Shown: piece by piece, positions 1-5,507 of the stretch
How the letters are laid out: the number at the start of each line of letters is the position of its first letter
How positions within the stretch are numbered: the first letter of the stretch is position 1
Assembly: GCA_033551855.1 (NCBI GenBank)
Contig: JAWSUI010000082.1
Location: 1 to 11,951 of the forward strand
Reading direction: 5' to 3'
Length of the DNA stretch: 11,951 bases
DNA from: Deferrisomatales bacterium
GTDB taxonomy: Bacteria > Desulfobacterota > Deferrisomatia > Deferrisomatales > JACRMM01
Program-made: the position numbers and the translations under genes
The notes under the pieces: model-generated
Database searches by the model: none
Seen by the model: the letters and a program-made list of their open reading frames with translations, nothing else
What the model was told of the DNA's origin: nothing

Positions 1-117
1 TGCTTTGAAAAAGGATCTGGCATGGGGCCTTCTGGATGAGTGAGGCCGTCAGTGATACCGGGCCCGTCCTGAGATCAATTGCGCCTCTCGATTGCGGGGG
101 GGGGGTGCCGTTTAGGT

Positions 118-266
118 TCATCGCCACTGGGGCCTCCTCATCAACTTCAACGTCCCCGTACTGAAGCCAGATAGCCTTCCTTGGCGTCCTTGGCGCCTTG
201 GCGGTTCAGAAGCTCCCGGCGTCCCCCGCACCTTGGCGGTTCCGTCCCTCTTCCTGTCTCTGCGGT
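118..266 (+). mobile_element. Partial copy of GxxExxY-derived miniature repeat element (deleted gene remnant HRHWGLLINFNVPVLK plus right arm)
   Basis: 118-166 is nearly identical to 1181-1230. It is followed by atagccttccttggcgtccttggcgccttggcggttca (arm 180-206), which matches 1258-1295. There is an extra ccttggcggtt at 231-241 and ctctgcggt at 258-266. No left arm is visible. Confidence 0.7.
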
Positions 267-349
267 AGCCCGCTTGCCCCAGATGTCGGAAGACGATAGC
301 CTGCTGGTGTGTGGTCTCGCGGTCACCGCTGTGCAACAGGGAGAGACCC

Positions 350-556
350 TTGCGCCTGGAAATTTCCGAAACCGTGAAGTCCTTGCCGAAGGTCCTGGCG
401 CTGGTGGCCAAGGGTGAGTCGGTTGTGCTTTGCGATCAGGCACGCCCCGTAGCCGAGATTCGGCCCATCCCGAGTCACCTCCGGGAACCCCGCCCCATCG
501 GTCTGGCCAAGGGGAAATTCACAGTGCCCCAAGAGTTCTTCGAACCTCTATCGTAG
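350..556 (+). CDS. Phd/YefM-family type II antitoxin, divergent and probably C-terminally shortened; no cognate toxin adjacent
   Basis: Sequence ...VLALVAKGESVVLCDQARPVAEIRPI...PRPIGLAKGKFTVPQEFFEPL fits Phd/YefM antitoxins that normally precede PIN toxins. TTG at 350 follows GGGAGA (ORF track starts at 311). Confidence 0.7.
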   Translation: MRLEISETVKSLPKVLALVAKGESVVLCDQARPVAEIRPIPSHLREPRPIGLAKGKFTVPQEFFEPLS

Positions 557-585
557 ATCCATGATGGCAAGAGTCTGGACGAGAC

Positions 586-876
586 ATGGCCATGCTCTTC
601 GAGTGGGATCCAAGAAAAGCTCAACGAAACAAGAGGGTGCACGCGGTCTCCTTCGACGAGGCGAGCACGGCATTTAGCGACCCGCTGTCCAGCACGATCG
701 AGGACCCGCTTCACTCGGAAGACGAACAGCGTTACGTCCTTCTCGGTCGTTCCCATCGCGGCCGGCTCCTTGTCGTGGTCCACACGGAGCGGGGAGAGCG
801 GATTCGGCTCATCAGCGCCCGACTCGCAACGAATCGAGAGAGGAAGCAATATGAAGAAGCACCGAGCGGACCCTGA
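586..876 (+). CDS. brnT: BrnT-family type II toxin (ribonuclease, DUF497)
   Basis: Hallmark motifs FEWDPRKAQRN..H.VSFDEA..F.DP, HSEDEQRY..LG and RIRLISARLAT.RER..Y. The start could be 586 or 592. Confidence 0.92.
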   Translation: MAMLFEWDPRKAQRNKRVHAVSFDEASTAFSDPLSSTIEDPLHSEDEQRYVLLGRSHRGRLLVVVHTERGERIRLISARLATNRERKQYEEAPSGP

Positions 877-1069
877 CATCCTCGAAGAGTATGACTTCTC
901 CGGCAGGATCCGAGGGAAGTACGCCGAGCGGTACGCCGAAGGAACCAACGTGGTCGTCATCGACCCCGACTTGACCGAGTATTTTCCCGACCACGACGCC
1001 GTGAACGGAGCCCTCCGGAGCCTCGTCCAAATCATAAAGGCAAAGGAGCGGGGACGAACTACGGCGTGA
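851..1069 (+). CDS. BrnA-like antitoxin partner of BrnT (72 aa)
   Basis: ATG at 851 follows GAGAGGAAG and overlaps the brnT 3' end. EYDFSG.IRGKY...VVIDPDL..YFPD..AVN.ALR is typical of small proteins encoded downstream of brnT. Confidence 0.78.
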   Translation: MKKHRADPDILEEYDFSGRIRGKYAERYAEGTNVVVIDPDLTEYFPDHDAVNGALRSLVQIIKAKERGRTTA

Positions 1070-1083
1070 ACGGGTCGGGGAGG

Positions 1084-1294
1084 GAACCGCCAAGGCACCA
1101 AGGTCGCCAGGGGGGAACCGCAGAGGCGGGGGAGAGGTTGGCGGGTTGGCGCGGGAGGTGATCGGGGCGGCCGTTGAAGCTCACCGCCACCTGGGCCTCC
1201 TCATCAACTTCAACGTCCCCGTCTTGAAGCAGGGCATTCGAAGAGAGGCGCCCCCAAATAGCCTTCCTTGGCGTCCTTGGCGTCTTGGCGGTTC
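1084..1294. mobile_element. Complete miniature element: left arm + internally deleted GxxExxY gene + inverted right arm
   Basis: Left arm aaccgccaaggcaccaaggtcgccagg (1085-1111) is the reverse complement of right arm cttggcgtccttggcgtcttggcggtt (1267-1293) at 23/27 positions. No target-site duplication is seen. Confidence 0.72.
1146..1244 (+). pseudogene. GxxExxY protein (PDDEXK_3) remnant with large internal deletion
   Basis: Translates as LAREVIGAAVEAHRHLG-LLINFNVPVLKQGIRR. This is the family N-terminal motif (IGAAIEVHRxLG) fused directly to the C-terminal motif (LGLLINFNVxxLKxGIxR). The GxxExxY motif and nuclease core are missing. Confidence 0.8.
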
Positions 1295-1429: not shown

Positions 1430-4090
1430 ATGACGCGGAAGACGCTACTTCTTGCGATCCTTTGCCTTCTCGGTTTCTCCATAGGCTGTGGCGGCGGGGG
1501 AGGGGGCGGCGACCCGGGTCCCACGGACACCACGCCGCCGGTCGTGGTGAGCCGCACGCCCGCCCCCGATGCCACGGCCGTGGCGGTGGGGGCTACCATC
1601 ACGGCGACCTTCTCCGAGGCCCTGGACCCGTCGACGATCACCGCCGCGACCTTCACCCTCAGCGGGCCCTCCGGTGAGGCAGCTGGTTCGGTCATCTACA
1701 GTGGTGTCACAGCGACGTTCACACCCTCGGCGAGCCTGGCCCACTCCACAACCTACACGGCGACCGTCACCACGGGGGTCCGCGACCTGGCCGGCAACGC
1801 CCTGACGTCGCCCGTCTCCTGGACCTTCACCACCGCCGCCGCGCCCGACACCACTCCACCCGACACCACGCCGCCGGCCGTCGTAAGCCGGGTGCCGCCC
1901 CCGGGTGCCACGGGTGTGGCCGTGGATATCTCTGTCACGGCGACCTTCTCCGAGGCCCTGGACCCGTCGACGATCACCGCGGCCACCTTCACTCTCAGCG
2001 GCCCGTCGGGGGCCGTGGCCGGGACGGTGCACTACGCGGGCACGACTGCCACTTTTACCCCGGCGGGAGACCTCTGGCCCGGAACCGCCTACAGCGCCAC
2101 GATCGCCGCCGGGGTGCGCGACCTCGCCGGCAATCCCCTGGGTGCGGACCACACCTGGTCCTTCACCACGGGCACCGAGTACAGCGACCCGCTCAGCGGC
2201 ATGGAATTCGTCTGGGTGCCGCCGGGAACCTTCGAGCGGGGCGAGCCGTACACCACCGAGAGAGGTGCTCCCTACTATCCCTACTGCACGTTCGTCGATG
2301 GGTGGCCCTGTTCGCGCGAGCAGCCCTCCCACCCGGTCACCCTCACCCGGGGCTTCTACCTGGCCAAGCACGAGGTCACCCAGGCCCAGTGGGAAGCGGT
2401 GATGGGGTCGAACCCGTCCTACTTCCAGCCGGCCAACGGTTTCACGGCCTGCCCCGATTGCCCGGTGGACCGCGTCTCCTGGAACGACGCGCAAGAGTTC
2501 GTCGCACTCCTCAACGCGGCCACGGGCAAGACCTACCGCCTCCCCACCGATGCCGAGTGGGAGTGGGCGGCCAAGGGCGGTCCGCTCTCCCAGGGGTACA
2601 AATTCGCAGGCTCGGACGACCCGGACGAGGTGGCCTGGTGGTGCGACGGCGAGGACTACGAAGTCGACTTCTGGTTCTGCGTGATGGAGTACCGCCCCTC
2701 CCCGGTGGGCCGGAAACTCCCCAACGAGCTGGGCCTCTACGACATGAGCGGCAACGTCTTCGAGTGGGTGCAGGACTATTTCGACTACTACCCCCCCTAT
2801 CCGGTCACGGATCCCGAGGTGCTGGTCCCGAACGCTTGTTCATACCACCCGGCCCGGGTCATTCGCGGCGGCGGGTACATGTATGACTGGTGGATCTCCT
2901 ACGTGCACCCGACACGCCGCACCGGCGGCTGGCCCGACCTGGGCCGGACCGACGTCGGGGTGCGACTGGCCTTGTCCCCCGATGGCTCGAACGGCTCGGC
3001 CCCCGCTCCGGACGGGCTTGCCGCCCCTACCGGCCTCACCGCCACCCCCGGAAGCAACCACGTCCTGCTCACCTGGAACGGTGTCCCGGGCACCGGCTCG
3101 TACCGCGTCTACTGGGGAACCCACCCCGGCGTCACCACGGGCAACGCCCTCGGCGGGGAGACCGCGGCCCCCGTCTTTCTCCACGACGGCCTGGCGCCGG
3201 GGCAGACCTACCACTACCGGGTGGCGTCGGTCGATGCGGAAGGGGAGGGCGCGCTGTCGCAGGAGCGTTCGGCCCTCCCCGGGCTCTCCCACGCCGACTA
3301 CGTCGAGCCCGTCACCGGGATGGAGCTCGTGTGGGTCGAGCCGGGAAGCTTCGAGATGGGGGACACCTTCGGGGACTGTGCCACGTGGTCGTGGGCGGAC
3401 ACGTGCGACGTCGAGCAGCCGGTCCACACGGTGACCCTCACCCGGGGCTTCTACATGGGTGTCTACGAGGTCACACAGGCCCAGTGGGAAGCGGTGATGG
3501 GGTCGAACCCGTCGTCCTTCCAGCCGGACCGGTGCTACCCCGCCTGCCCCACGTGCCCGGTGGAAGGCGTCTCCTGGGACGACACCCAGGTCTTTCTCCA
3601 GGAACTGAACCAGCAGACGGGCAAGAACTTCCGTCTCCCCACGGAAGCCGAGTGGGAGTACGCCGCCAGAGGGGGGCCCGACTCCCAGGGGTTCCGGTAC
3701 GCCGGCTCCGACGACCCGTACGAGGTGGCCTGGAACTGGGACGACTCGGGGAAACGCACCCGCCGCGTCGGCCAGAAGCTGCCCAACGAGCTGGGCCTCT
3801 ACGACATGAGCGGCAACGTGTGGGAGTGGGTACAGGACTGGTTCGACTACTACCCGCCCGACCCCGTCACGGACCCCCAGGGCCCCCCGTCGCCGACCGA
3901 TCCCCACGGGTGGGGTTGGGGGCGGGTGACGCGGGGAGGCGGCTTTGACCACGTTGCCTGGTCGAGCTTCTGGAAACCCCTGCGGCCGACGTACCGCTAC
4001 TACTTCGAGGAGCCGGCCGGGTTCGATCCTTGGGATCAATCCAGCGAGGGGCGCGATCAACGGGGACTGCGCCTGGTCTTGCCCGAGTGA
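1430..4090 (+). CDS. Lipoprotein (886 aa) with two Big_5/SbsA Ig-like domains, FGE-sulfatase (SUMF1/EgtB/PvdO, C-type lectin fold) domain, FN3 domain and second FGE domain
   Basis: ATG 1430 follows GGGGAAGG. Signal peptide MTRKTLLLAILCLLGFSIG-C with poly-Gly linker. DTTPP.VVSR.P...ITATFSEALDPSTIT..VRDLAGN occurs twice. EVTQAQWEAVMGSNPS, RLPT.AEWE.AA.GG, PNELGLYDMSGNV.EWVQD and RV.RGG each occur twice. An FN3-like APTGLTATPG..V.LTW...Y.VYW...TYHYRVASV segment lies between the FGE domains. Confidence 0.9.
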   Translation: MTRKTLLLAILCLLGFSIGCGGGGGGGDPGPTDTTPPVVVSRTPAPDATAVAVGATITATFSEALDPSTITAATFTLSGPSGEAAGSVIYSGVTATFTPSASLAHSTTYTATVTTGVRDLAGNALTSPVSWTFTTAAAPDTTPPDTTPPAVVSRVPPPGATGVAVDISVTATFSEALDPSTITAATFTLSGPSGAVAGTVHYAGTTATFTPAGDLWPGTAYSATIAAGVRDLAGNPLGADHTWSFTTGTEYSDPLSGMEFVWVPPGTFERGEPYTTERGAPYYPYCTFVDGWPCSREQPSHPVTLTRGFYLAKHEVTQAQWEAVMGSNPSYFQPANGFTACPDCPVDRVSWNDAQEFVALLNAATGKTYRLPTDAEWEWAAKGGPLSQGYKFAGSDDPDEVAWWCDGEDYEVDFWFCVMEYRPSPVGRKLPNELGLYDMSGNVFEWVQDYFDYYPPYPVTDPEVLVPNACSYHPARVIRGGGYMYDWWISYVHPTRRTGGWPDLGRTDVGVRLALSPDGSNGSAPAPDGLAAPTGLTATPGSNHVLLTWNGVPGTGSYRVYWGTHPGVTTGNALGGETAAPVFLHDGLAPGQTYHYRVASVDAEGEGALSQERSALPGLSHADYVEPVTGMELVWVEPGSFEMGDTFGDCATWSWADTCDVEQPVHTVTLTRGFYMGVYEVTQAQWEAVMGSNPSSFQPDRCYPACPTCPVEGVSWDDTQVFLQELNQQTGKNFRLPTEAEWEYAARGGPDSQGFRYAGSDDPYEVAWNWDDSGKRTRRVGQKLPNELGLYDMSGNVWEWVQDWFDYYPPDPVTDPQGPPSPTDPHGWGWGRVTRGGGFDHVAWSSFWKPLRPTYRYYFEEPAGFDPWDQSSEGRDQRGLRLVLPE
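1599..1980 (+). repeat. Intragenic duplication of the Ig-like domain (46-bp identical block, 336-bp period)
   Basis: tcacggcgaccttctccgaggccctggacccgtcgacgatcaccgc is identical at 1599-1644 and 1935-1980. Confidence 0.9.
2381..3819 (+). repeat. Intragenic duplication of the FGE domain (38-bp identical blocks)
   Basis: 2381-2418 equals 3476-3513, and 2720-2757 equals 3782-3819. Confidence 0.9.
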
Positions 4091-4191: not shown

Positions 4192-4540
4192 AACCGCAGA
4201 GACACAAAAGGAACTGGGGACCGCCAAGGCGCCAAGGACGCCAAGGGGGAACCGGGGAGGCGAGGGGGAACTGGGGACCGCCAAGGCGCCAAGTACGCCA
4301 GGGGGGAATCGCAGGGGCGAGGGGCGCGCCGAGAGAACCACGAGGCAAATGGTATGGAGGGCGGGCACCGGGGGGTAACCTTCCCCCCAAGACTTAGCGC
4401 TCGTCTCTGCTTCCTCCGCCTCTCTGCAGTCCAGAACCCACTTGGCGACCTTGGCGTCTTGGCGGTTCAAGAGCTCTTGGCGACCTTGGCGTCTTGGCGG
4501 TTCAAGAGCTCCCGGCGACCTTGGCGTCTTGGCGGTTGAA
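4192..4540. repeat. Third copy of the repeat element, gene-less, with tandemly amplified arms
   Basis: Left arms accgccaaggcgccaaggacgccaag (4220-4245) and 4277-4301 form a 57-bp-period tandem. Right arms cttggcgaccttggcgtcttggcggttcaagagct form a 35-bp tandem at 4441, 4476 and 4511. An aaccgcagag motif lies at 4192. Confidence 0.85.
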
Positions 4541-4586
4541 GGGCCACTGCGGGTTCGCTCGCAACAGGCAGAAGGGCAGGGCTCGT

Positions 4587-5507
4587 GTGCTCGGATCGAT
4601 AAGGCGCCGCACCGGCAGGCTCGCCGCCAGGGGGGGCACGCGGCTGCGACAGGCTCATCTCTGGCTCACGGGGCGATCCGTCTCCAAGAGGGACCTCCTC
4701 GAAGGGCTTCGAGACCTCGGCATCGAGCGGGGCGACGTGATCTTCGTCCACTCGTCGCTGGGCAGCCTCGGGTACGTGCGTGGGGGGCCCCGGGCCGTGA
4801 TCGAGTCGCTGTACGAAGCGGTCGGCCCCGAGGGCACCCTGATGGTGCCCACCTACTTCGTGCCGGGAGGAACGGTCCTCGCCGCCGCCCGGACCCCCGG
4901 TTACGTCTTCGATCCCCGAAGACACGGAGCCAACCTGGGAGCGCTTCCGTCGGCGTTCCTGAAGTTTCCGGGCATCGAGCGCAGCATCCACCCGACCCAC
5001 TCGGTCTCCGCCGTGGGGAAGCAGGCCAGGTACGTCACGGAAGGCCACCATCGCGCACCCTCCATCTTCGGGGCCGGATCTCCCTGGGATCGGCTGATCG
5101 AGCTGGGCGGCAAGGTGGTCGGCCTGGGGGTCAGCATGGGGCCGATCAGCTTCTACCACGTCCTGCAGGATCGGGTGCTCGACGCCTACCCGATCCCGGT
5201 CCACCTCAAGGAGACCTTTGTCATGAAGTGCCGCGACTGGGACGGGAACTTGAACGAGGTCCCCGTGCGCGCCTACGACCCCGCCCACGCGGTCCGAAGG
5301 ATCGACCAGAAGGGGCGCGAGGATCTGCGCCGGTATTTCTGGAGGGAGTTCGAGAGGGCCGGGTTGCTCAATTCTGGCCGCGTCGGGGAAGCCACCGCGT
5401 GGTTCATCCCGGCCCGCCAATTCTACGAGCACCTGCACCGGCTGATGCTCGAGGGCATCACCACGTACTCCACGCCGGAGGAGTTCGAGCGCAGGCCGAT
5501 TTCTTGA
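4587..5507 (+). CDS. AAC(3)/YokD-family (Antibiotic_NAT) N-acetyltransferase-like protein
   Basis: Motifs LRDLGIERGDVIFVHSSLGSLGYV.GG, GPEGTLMVPT, RSIHPTHSVSAVG.QA, FGAGSPW..L and GKVVGLGV. GTG 4587 is chosen because the ORF-track start at 4494 lies inside the repeat. Confidence 0.88.
   Translation: MLGSIRRRTGRLAARGGTRLRQAHLWLTGRSVSKRDLLEGLRDLGIERGDVIFVHSSLGSLGYVRGGPRAVIESLYEAVGPEGTLMVPTYFVPGGTVLAAARTPGYVFDPRRHGANLGALPSAFLKFPGIERSIHPTHSVSAVGKQARYVTEGHHRAPSIFGAGSPWDRLIELGGKVVGLGVSMGPISFYHVLQDRVLDAYPIPVHLKETFVMKCRDWDGNLNEVPVRAYDPAHAVRRIDQKGREDLRRYFWREFERAGLLNSGRVGEATAWFIPARQFYEHLHRLMLEGITTYSTPEEFERRPIS

Follow-up and report, generated by a model that had tools for sequence, protein, structure and literature searches.

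What is the 211-base unit at positions 1084 to 1294 of the window, that is, of the whole stretch of 11,951 nucleotides analysed here (contig C82 of a Deferrisomatales bacterium), and does it belong to a mobile system? A preliminary description took it for a MITE- or REPIN-like element derived from a GxxExxY nuclease gene. On recomputation its inverted arms (1084-1110 and 1268-1294) match at 23 of 27 positions, the same count as given before, or at 25 of 29 with two bases more, and the z-score of folding is -5.2 for the unit as RNA and -2.5 for it as DNA. The left arm (1084..1112, plus strand) consists of GAAC followed by three 8-9-nt units, CGCCAAG, CACCAAG, and CGCCAGG; the right arm (1266..1294, minus strand), recognized by its inverted match to the left arm, has three CGCCAAG units. 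A second, nested arm type (AACCGCAGAGGCG) begins at 1116..1128 (plus strand), and the same composite is found at 4220-4325 and on contig C12. The frame from 1086 reads LAREVIGAAVEAHRH-LG-LLINFNVPVLKQGIRR and contains two pieces of a GxxExxY gene: (i) an N-terminal remnant with a TTG start, running from the first helix to LG (1146..1196, plus strand; profile positions 3-19); and (ii) a C-terminal remnant (LGLLINFNVPVLKQGIRR; 1191..1244, plus strand; profile positions 98-117), which has no stop codon before the right arm and whose open reading frame extends to 1337. According to the family HMM and public soil contigs, the deletion join lies at the Leu-Gly codons (1190..1197, plus strand), with a probable microhomology of 6-8 nt.

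As an intact member of PF13366 the unit fails, falling below the Pfam and TIGR cut-offs: the Pfam search gives a weak match (E 0.18, profile 98-116), and the TIGR04256 search of the remnant returned no match. As a derived remnant it qualifies, since both of its ends are homologous to the family and stand in the expected order and in frame. A profile HMM built from 195 intact members matches it at positions 3-19 and 98-117 (E 6e-9, single sequence), and among 56,862 pieces from a six-frame translation of the genome, its C-terminal half ranks next best after the two known loci (E 0.027). The proposed derivation from a GxxExxY gene is thereby borne out, and the feared absence of HMM similarity to the PF13366 termini does not hold. 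Comparison with the eight intact genes that most resemble it in DNA puts the loss at 243-246 nt (~82 codons), in frame. The lost part (profile 20-97) contains the GxxExxY motif, the D, the E-x-K, and the Q-x3-Y, leaving the helix that precedes the GxxExxY motif and the last strands; the earlier claim that two ends of such a protein are joined at LG was therefore right, but the GxxExxY motif, which was thought to be kept, has been deleted. LG occupies both join positions in 57 of the 195 intact genes, and a microhomology-type deletion at LG, as first suggested, is probable. Of the public soil contigs, one aligns with just 1142-1197 and another with just 1190-1245, consistent with a microhomology of 6-8 nt at the join; this length is approximate, and the two records are short, of low depth, and from other organisms. 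Of the sampled genes, just L020 and L120 have ACCGCCAAG arms at both ends; they rank fourth and eighth in DNA likeness to the remnant. These data leave little doubt that the unit is an internally deleted, catalytically empty derivative of a GxxExxY cassette of ~460 bp, which probably formed through a microhomology deletion between the two Leu-Gly codon pairs, followed by a partial duplication nearby. Chance similarity or an assembly artefact is hardly credible, even with a Pfam E-value of just 0.18 and with none of the contigs listed bridging the join with long sides; both gene ends lie in the right order and frame within the right arms, the join recurs in a second copy that has diverged, and, against an artefact, 179-1125 is present in a different strain (run X1) with 31 differences in 946 nt. 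No RNA data set was listed as carrying the sequence.

That second copy (101..219, plus strand) is partial: it has the same join (HRH-WG-LLINF), a further loss of 24 nt, and a right arm at 179-207, lacks a left arm, and is 85% identical to the window unit over 67 nt. Because the join is shared, the deleted form must have been copied at least once. Between the two copies lies a toxin-antitoxin block (311..1069, plus strand) comprising a degenerate antitoxin-like ORF (311-556, plus strand), BrnT (586-876, plus strand; profile match), and a probable BrnA-type antitoxin (851-1069, plus strand), which has no library match and is named from its position. Farther on, a gene-less cluster of the same arms (4217..4537) has left arms at 4220 and 4277 facing three right arms that end at 4466, 4501, and 4536. 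Two other genes adjoin these features: a probable lipoprotein with two Big_5, two FGE-sulfatase, and one fn3 domains, built by internal duplications (1430-4090, plus strand); and, right behind the arm cluster and beside a polysaccharide locus, an ORF predicted to belong to PF02522, the aminoglycoside 3-N-acetyltransferase family (4494-5507, plus strand).

No further copy of the deleted unit was found elsewhere in the source genome, in 400 genomes of the phylum (two candidates scored per genome), or in seven genomes of the family. Nor was an empty site for the window locus obtained, and neither G001 nor G002 keeps both flanks: in G001 the antitoxin gene is followed by other genes and no arm, and in G002 the downstream gene is preceded by other arms of the same family. 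The deleted form thus exists as only two copies, 1.06 kb apart, and not as the multiple dispersed copies of an IS/MITE pair; the preliminary reading of a non-autonomous, MITE-like derivative stands as to the deletion of a GxxExxY gene, but not as to dispersal. That the deleted unit has itself transposed is doubtful. A relic that decayed in place and was duplicated once locally, which is compatible with a mobile family and concerns this unit only, is the probable explanation, and with similar confidence we consider such a locally once-copied relic likelier than an active MITE: one of the just two copies is partial, no other was found in the genome or in the 400 others, and the assembly has no enzyme of the CGCCAAG arm type. 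On the other hand, both arms of the unit are still intact three-unit arrays, the shared join implies at least one round of copying, and the assembly is in 132 contigs, broken by repeats. The window unit itself is a dead derivative; it is of value because it connects the arms with the gene ends in a single piece.

If the unit derives from a cassette, intact GxxExxY genes should lie between inverted arms. PF13366 loci were gathered from 41 relatives, from 301 genomes of the phylum (30 loci and 60 listed regions), and from 80 loci of many phyla, the last found by one peptide pattern and therefore biased to one clade; 204 HMM matches yielded 195 distinct near-full genes, 187 of them with both 150-nt flanks. 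An inverted flank match score of at least 12 is reached by 139 of the 187 intact genes, compared with 19 of 600 genes from their own genomes, 2 of 82 neighbours, 286 of 3000 cross-locus flank pairs, and 61 of the 187 when the flanks are compared in direct orientation. At a score of at least 16, the counts are 103/187 for the intact genes, 4/600 for own-genome genes, and 0/82 for neighbours; 48/187 genes have no clear inverted match. The association that the preliminary description predicted, and whose absence it feared, is therefore present, and intact GxxExxY genes with matching arms occur in many bacterial phyla. Their arms are direct arrays of 8-10-nt units, with three units per arm in 114 of 192 cases and a period of 9 (163) or 8 (134), and the arm-to-arm length is 421-595 bp (median 458, 82 elements), as bounded by search windows of 130 nt. 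Two GxxExxY genes (L032 and L163) lie inside long open frames of 496 and 418 a.a., possibly through fusion or arm read-through, and at L104 and its orthologues a second repeat family (GGTCAAGGTCAAG heptamers) occurs beside the cassettes, left of the arm.

The encoded protein has the residues of a nuclease. D, E, and K are invariant (195/195) and the Q-x3-Y is near-invariant (Q in 191, Y in 193), the GxxExxY letters being left out of the count as the criterion of selection. A model of the L020 protein (pLDDT 94) has lambda-type exonucleases, Cas4, and MGME1 as its best Foldseek matches (best E 1.2e-3), with none at E<=0.001, and VIA-align superimposes it on the BpuSI nuclease domain (Z 7.8, rmsd 2.9, 95 aligned) and Cas4 (Z 7.3, rmsd 4.7, 103 aligned). 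Because no Foldseek match reaches E<=0.001 and all VIA-align Z values are below 8, the fold is assigned to the superfamily only. PF13366 is listed as of unknown function with multiple transfers between phyla (PMC3424549), and a GxxExxY gene called cas4 adjoins a reverse transcriptase (bioRxiv 2021.01.26.428298); a literature search, with subscription journals mostly outside its scope, found no paper that links GxxExxY/PF13366 to repeats or mobility. Among 80 neighbours from 40 random loci, 45 had Pfam matches and none of these was a transposase or integrase. Many were operon pairs (e.g., pheS-pheT, nuoF-nuoG), and 42 of the 45 were co-directional (counted by hand). The family is present on 8 of 72,556 plasmids and on none of 50,697 phages.

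One arm sequence for the whole family, as the preliminary description assumed, has to be abandoned, since each protein clade has its own arms and the intact gene of the source genome has arms unlike those of the window unit. In a quick IQ-TREE phylogeny of 120 columns with many open forks, the deepest split separates 38 of the 39 genes whose units end in AT from 117 of the 120 with AG-ending units (SH-aLRT 90); 34 genes were unlabelled, 2 were mixed, and 54 labels came from one flank only. Arm similarity correlates with protein identity (rho 0.25, Mantel 0/500), the share of common arm 7-mers being 0.02 between proteins 30-40% identical and 0.35 between those at least 70% identical, among the 121 genes that have a clear inverted match, and genes of the same host that are less than 70% identical share just 0.03-0.10 of their arm 7-mers. 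The arm class thus tracks the protein tree, not the host.

The source genome (G000) itself carries several arm types. The 18-nt motif named in the preliminary description occurs 20 times exactly; its occurrences are clustered on 6 of 132 contigs and not evenly spread. The feared lack of genome-wide enrichment does not hold. The arm type of the window is represented by 28 arms on 7 contigs, with 4 facing pairs, and no intact gene with CGCCAAG arms exists in this assembly. The sole intact gene (C43) has arms of a different type, GACRGGAT, of which there are 56 on 17 contigs, including 16 gene-less facing pairs of 63-204 bp. The CGCCAAG-type arms punctuate toxin-antitoxin gene arrays in a cassette-array-like manner (C12:1-2100, C77:2500-6900, C24:12475, and the window at 179-1294), the genes among them being MazF/RHH, PIN/AbrB, ParE/Phd, TacA, and BrnT; six tandem arm units of ~56 bp stand at the end of C12. 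A third GxxExxY type, whose arms have CTCGCGCAGAG tips, is represented by two 5' halves, related to each other, at C9:84606-84749 and C4:79180-79266.

Gene-less derivatives that carry the arm type of a resident gene, which were expected on the preliminary reading, proved abundant, with the 16 doublets of the source genome and those of G196 as extragenic inverted doublets of an enzyme gene's own repeat. The typical non-autonomous form is a doublet of 60-200 bp without gene remnants, and all of the ~35 facing arm pairs among those listed are shorter than 300 bp. G196 has 323 arms, mostly in doublets of ~84 bp with conserved arms and variable spacers, which match its own gene L053, of the CACAGAG arm class; in those at L330-L349 conservation continues past the arms into polar flanks, and many of them lie inside a CGCAGAG-type element. 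Of 301 genomes, among which kin are not independent, 72 have at least 10 AG-type arms, 49 of these with an intact gene, vs. 39 of the 229 with fewer arms; of the 15 with at least 10 GACRGGAT arms, 13 have an intact gene (counted by hand). The gene is nevertheless patchy (88/301 genomes): 23 of the 72 arm-rich genomes have no intact gene, and when five arm-rich, gene-negative genomes were re-searched at E 0.01, four gave no trace of one.

The preliminary description proposed aligning filled and empty orthologous sites, and both states are present at two loci. Five genomes (G000, G001, G003, G005, and G007) carry the cassette between etfA and hdrA, and G006, G008, and G010 lack it there, the empty G006 being of the same genus as the filled G003 and G007; G002 and G004 gave no adjacent etfA/hdrA pair. 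A copy at the same site in three genera is a case of long vertical residence. At four etfA-hdrA loci (L001, whose arms are of the GACRGGAT class, and L008, L012, L025) the right arm is read in frame as part of what looks like the N-terminus of hdrA (e.g., NPVIPS or PVHPVILS), and the left arm shares bases with the stop codon of etfA, indicating that the arms became host coding sequence. In the genus of Thioalkalivibrio ALJ16, one orthologous site was found in 16 of 35 genomes, eight of them empty and eight filled. Three types of cassette occupy the filled sites and differ in both arms and protein (a.a. identity 82-96% within types, 57-68% between), one cassette being in decay and one missing its 5' part. 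The types are mixed on the tree of the flanks, where G327, G350, and G332 place all three in one 100/100 clade, and G325 and G323 encode a 96% identical protein within flanks that are 82% identical. Filled, decayed, and empty alleles at one site, together with lateral exchange, form a homing-type pattern; simple homologous exchange of the locus could produce the swapping as well. Copies at separate places within one genome are 97-99% identical in G080 and G267, where the identity ends 10-30 nt outside the arms, and in G144 and G096 the identity extends further, into more arm copies.

The arm tips bear on how a cassette might be inserted. Target-site duplication was considered as a general feature and rejected: a duplication of at least 3 nt at the arm tips is found in 0 of 47 elements, and 23 doublets of G196 show none above the level of cross-pairs. 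With slack, 7-8-bp direct repeats occur in only 2 of 82 elements (L183 and L179, 7 bp in the latter), and GTAA tips with direct repeats of at least 7/8 in 2 of 187 genes (L108, L183), such that the exceptions are a small subset with GTAA tips. For those few cassettes, the combination of GTAA tips and 7-8-bp direct repeats, which we take to be IS66-like, points to IS transposases. L183, L179 (G080), and L108 form a subfamily with GTAAC-type tips outside the arms, perhaps cassettes that were captured by IS-derived ends. The IS/MITE analogy of the preliminary description accordingly extends to the inverted ends and the deleted derivative, but not to target duplication, which the great majority of elements lack. 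Mismatches between arms are mostly A/G exchanges within units. An RNA stem maintained by selection, as in rRNA intervening sequences, was rejected: no G-U excess is seen on the sense strand (126 G-U vs. 127 A-C in 99 elements), and hence there is no sign of such selection. A/G exchanges without a G-U bias suit degenerate protein-binding sites in DNA better than an RNA stem.

Taken together, gene and arms are probably mobile or selfish as a unit. On balance, we favour a cassette composed of one GxxExxY gene between two inverted three-unit arms, likely selfish, with a nuclease that is predicted to recognise arms of its own type and to cut them; that this nuclease also drives the mobility is a prediction to which we give comparable, moderate weight. 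The protein would bind the 8-9-nt units as degenerate DNA sites and nick or cut close to the outer ACC tip, perhaps acting on an extruded hairpin. PD-(D/E)XK enzymes hydrolyse DNA and form no covalent intermediate, so that host recombination and repair would have to copy or re-join the cassettes. It counts against this reading that no way is known by which a lone hydrolytic nuclease of 125 residues could integrate DNA. Such a cut-and-repair life style, in which the enzyme binds its own array, cuts near the tips, and leaves host repair to copy, swap, or delete, would leave no target duplication, could replace a cassette at an occupied site, and might spread gene-less doublets in trans.

The arms could instead be spread by another agent, either IS transposases in trans or host recombination, with the GxxExxY gene as cargo. 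The few cassettes with GTAA tips and direct repeats of at least 7/8 (L108 and L183 of 187 genes, with 7 bp in L179) would agree with this, as would the arm-rich genomes without a trace of the gene and the position of the source genome's CGCCAAG arms amid toxin-antitoxin genes. We nonetheless regard it as unlikely, as the arm class goes with the clade of the protein and is not the same for different genes of a host, all 47 tested arm tips are free of duplications of at least 3 nt, and the 45 identified neighbours include no transposase. Slightly less probable again is a host function, in which a domesticated enzyme or regulator has the arms as operator sites, or as an RNA stem that makes the insert harmless in operons. 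Insertion inside housekeeping operons such as pheS-pheT and nuoF-nuoG, with 42/45 identified neighbours co-directional, agrees with a host role, and so do the long residence at etfA-hdrA, the strong hairpin, and the rarity on plasmids and absence from the phages searched. Against it, G-U pairs are not in excess on the sense strand (126 vs. 127 A-C), and the patchy presence (88/301), the swapping, and the frequent decay (G327, G350, and the source genome's own C9, C4, and C82) fit a selfish cycle.

The gene-plus-arm cassette family is real, widespread, and apparently undescribed. Its selfish, nuclease-bearing cassettes could, tentatively, represent a minimal class of mobile DNA without a transposase, integrase, or reverse transcriptase, in which a Cas4/RecB-like nuclease of ~125 residues reads a clade-specific three-unit arm code and cuts, and host repair copies or swaps the cassette and spreads hundreds of gene-less doublets. 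If this is true, the widespread GxxExxY family would acquire a function and a large family of bacterial repeats an explanation. Because the arms are a predicted, clade-matched substrate of 25-30 nt for each protein, activity can be tested with short oligonucleotides and cross-clade controls, and a tiny nuclease with naturally varied, predicted specificity would be of interest as a tool.

Several known systems resemble parts of this one. With Cas4, RecB, and lambda exonuclease the GxxExxY proteins share the fold and the D, E-x-K, and Q-x3-Y residues, along with a weak TIGR00372 match (E 0.008); they differ in having no Fe-S cysteines among the conserved columns, in being much smaller, and in having no CRISPR or helicase partner among the loci seen. 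The small dispersed repeats (SDR) of Nostoc, reportedly described by Elhai and co-workers in 2008 as nested sequences of 21-27 nt and thought to be mobile, are similar by description, being likewise dispersed and nested, and three cyanobacterial loci (L058, L060, L087) have CGCAGAG-type arms; the arms may already be known in cyanobacteria as SDRs, to which no enzyme is known to have been assigned. IS/MITE pairs have in common with the cassettes the terminal inverted repeats around one ORF, the internally deleted derivatives, and, for the small subset with GTAA tips, the 7-8-bp direct repeats. However, the GxxExxY cassette is ~460 bp, its ORF is PF13366 with no DDE or HUH transposase, and the great majority of cassettes lack a target duplication. 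Free-standing homing endonuclease genes, which include PD-(D/E)XK types such as I-Ssp6803I, provide a parallel in their hydrolytic nuclease, in the filled, decayed, and empty states at one site, and in lateral exchange; they differ in that GxxExxY cassettes have inverted arms, hundreds of gene-less derivatives, and many unrelated sites, with no intron or intein seen.

The analogy to RAYT/REPIN drawn in the preliminary description is the closest in organization, since the doublets carry the arms of an enzyme gene, but it breaks down for the enzyme and for the structure of the repeat. In REPIN-RAYT systems, REP doublets are associated with TnpA-REP (PMC3116915, PMC8266576). In both systems the repeats that flank one small enzyme gene also form many extragenic inverted doublets, whose arms are conserved and whose spacers vary; the enzymes fall into groups that co-evolve with their repeats, and residence at a site is long. 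The REPIN-RAYT enzyme is of the HUH/Y1 type and the one here PD-(D/E)XK (TIGR04256); the repeat there is a palindrome with a GTAG or CGTC tag, whereas the arms here are direct arrays of three 8-9-nt units; and GxxExxY genes often number several per genome, with whole cassettes swapped. If the nuclease does move the cassette, the abundant CACAGAG/CGCCAAG/ACAGGAT repeats (up to 335 arms per genome) would gain an origin, and the REPIN-RAYT life style would have evolved a second time, on an unrelated hydrolytic enzyme.
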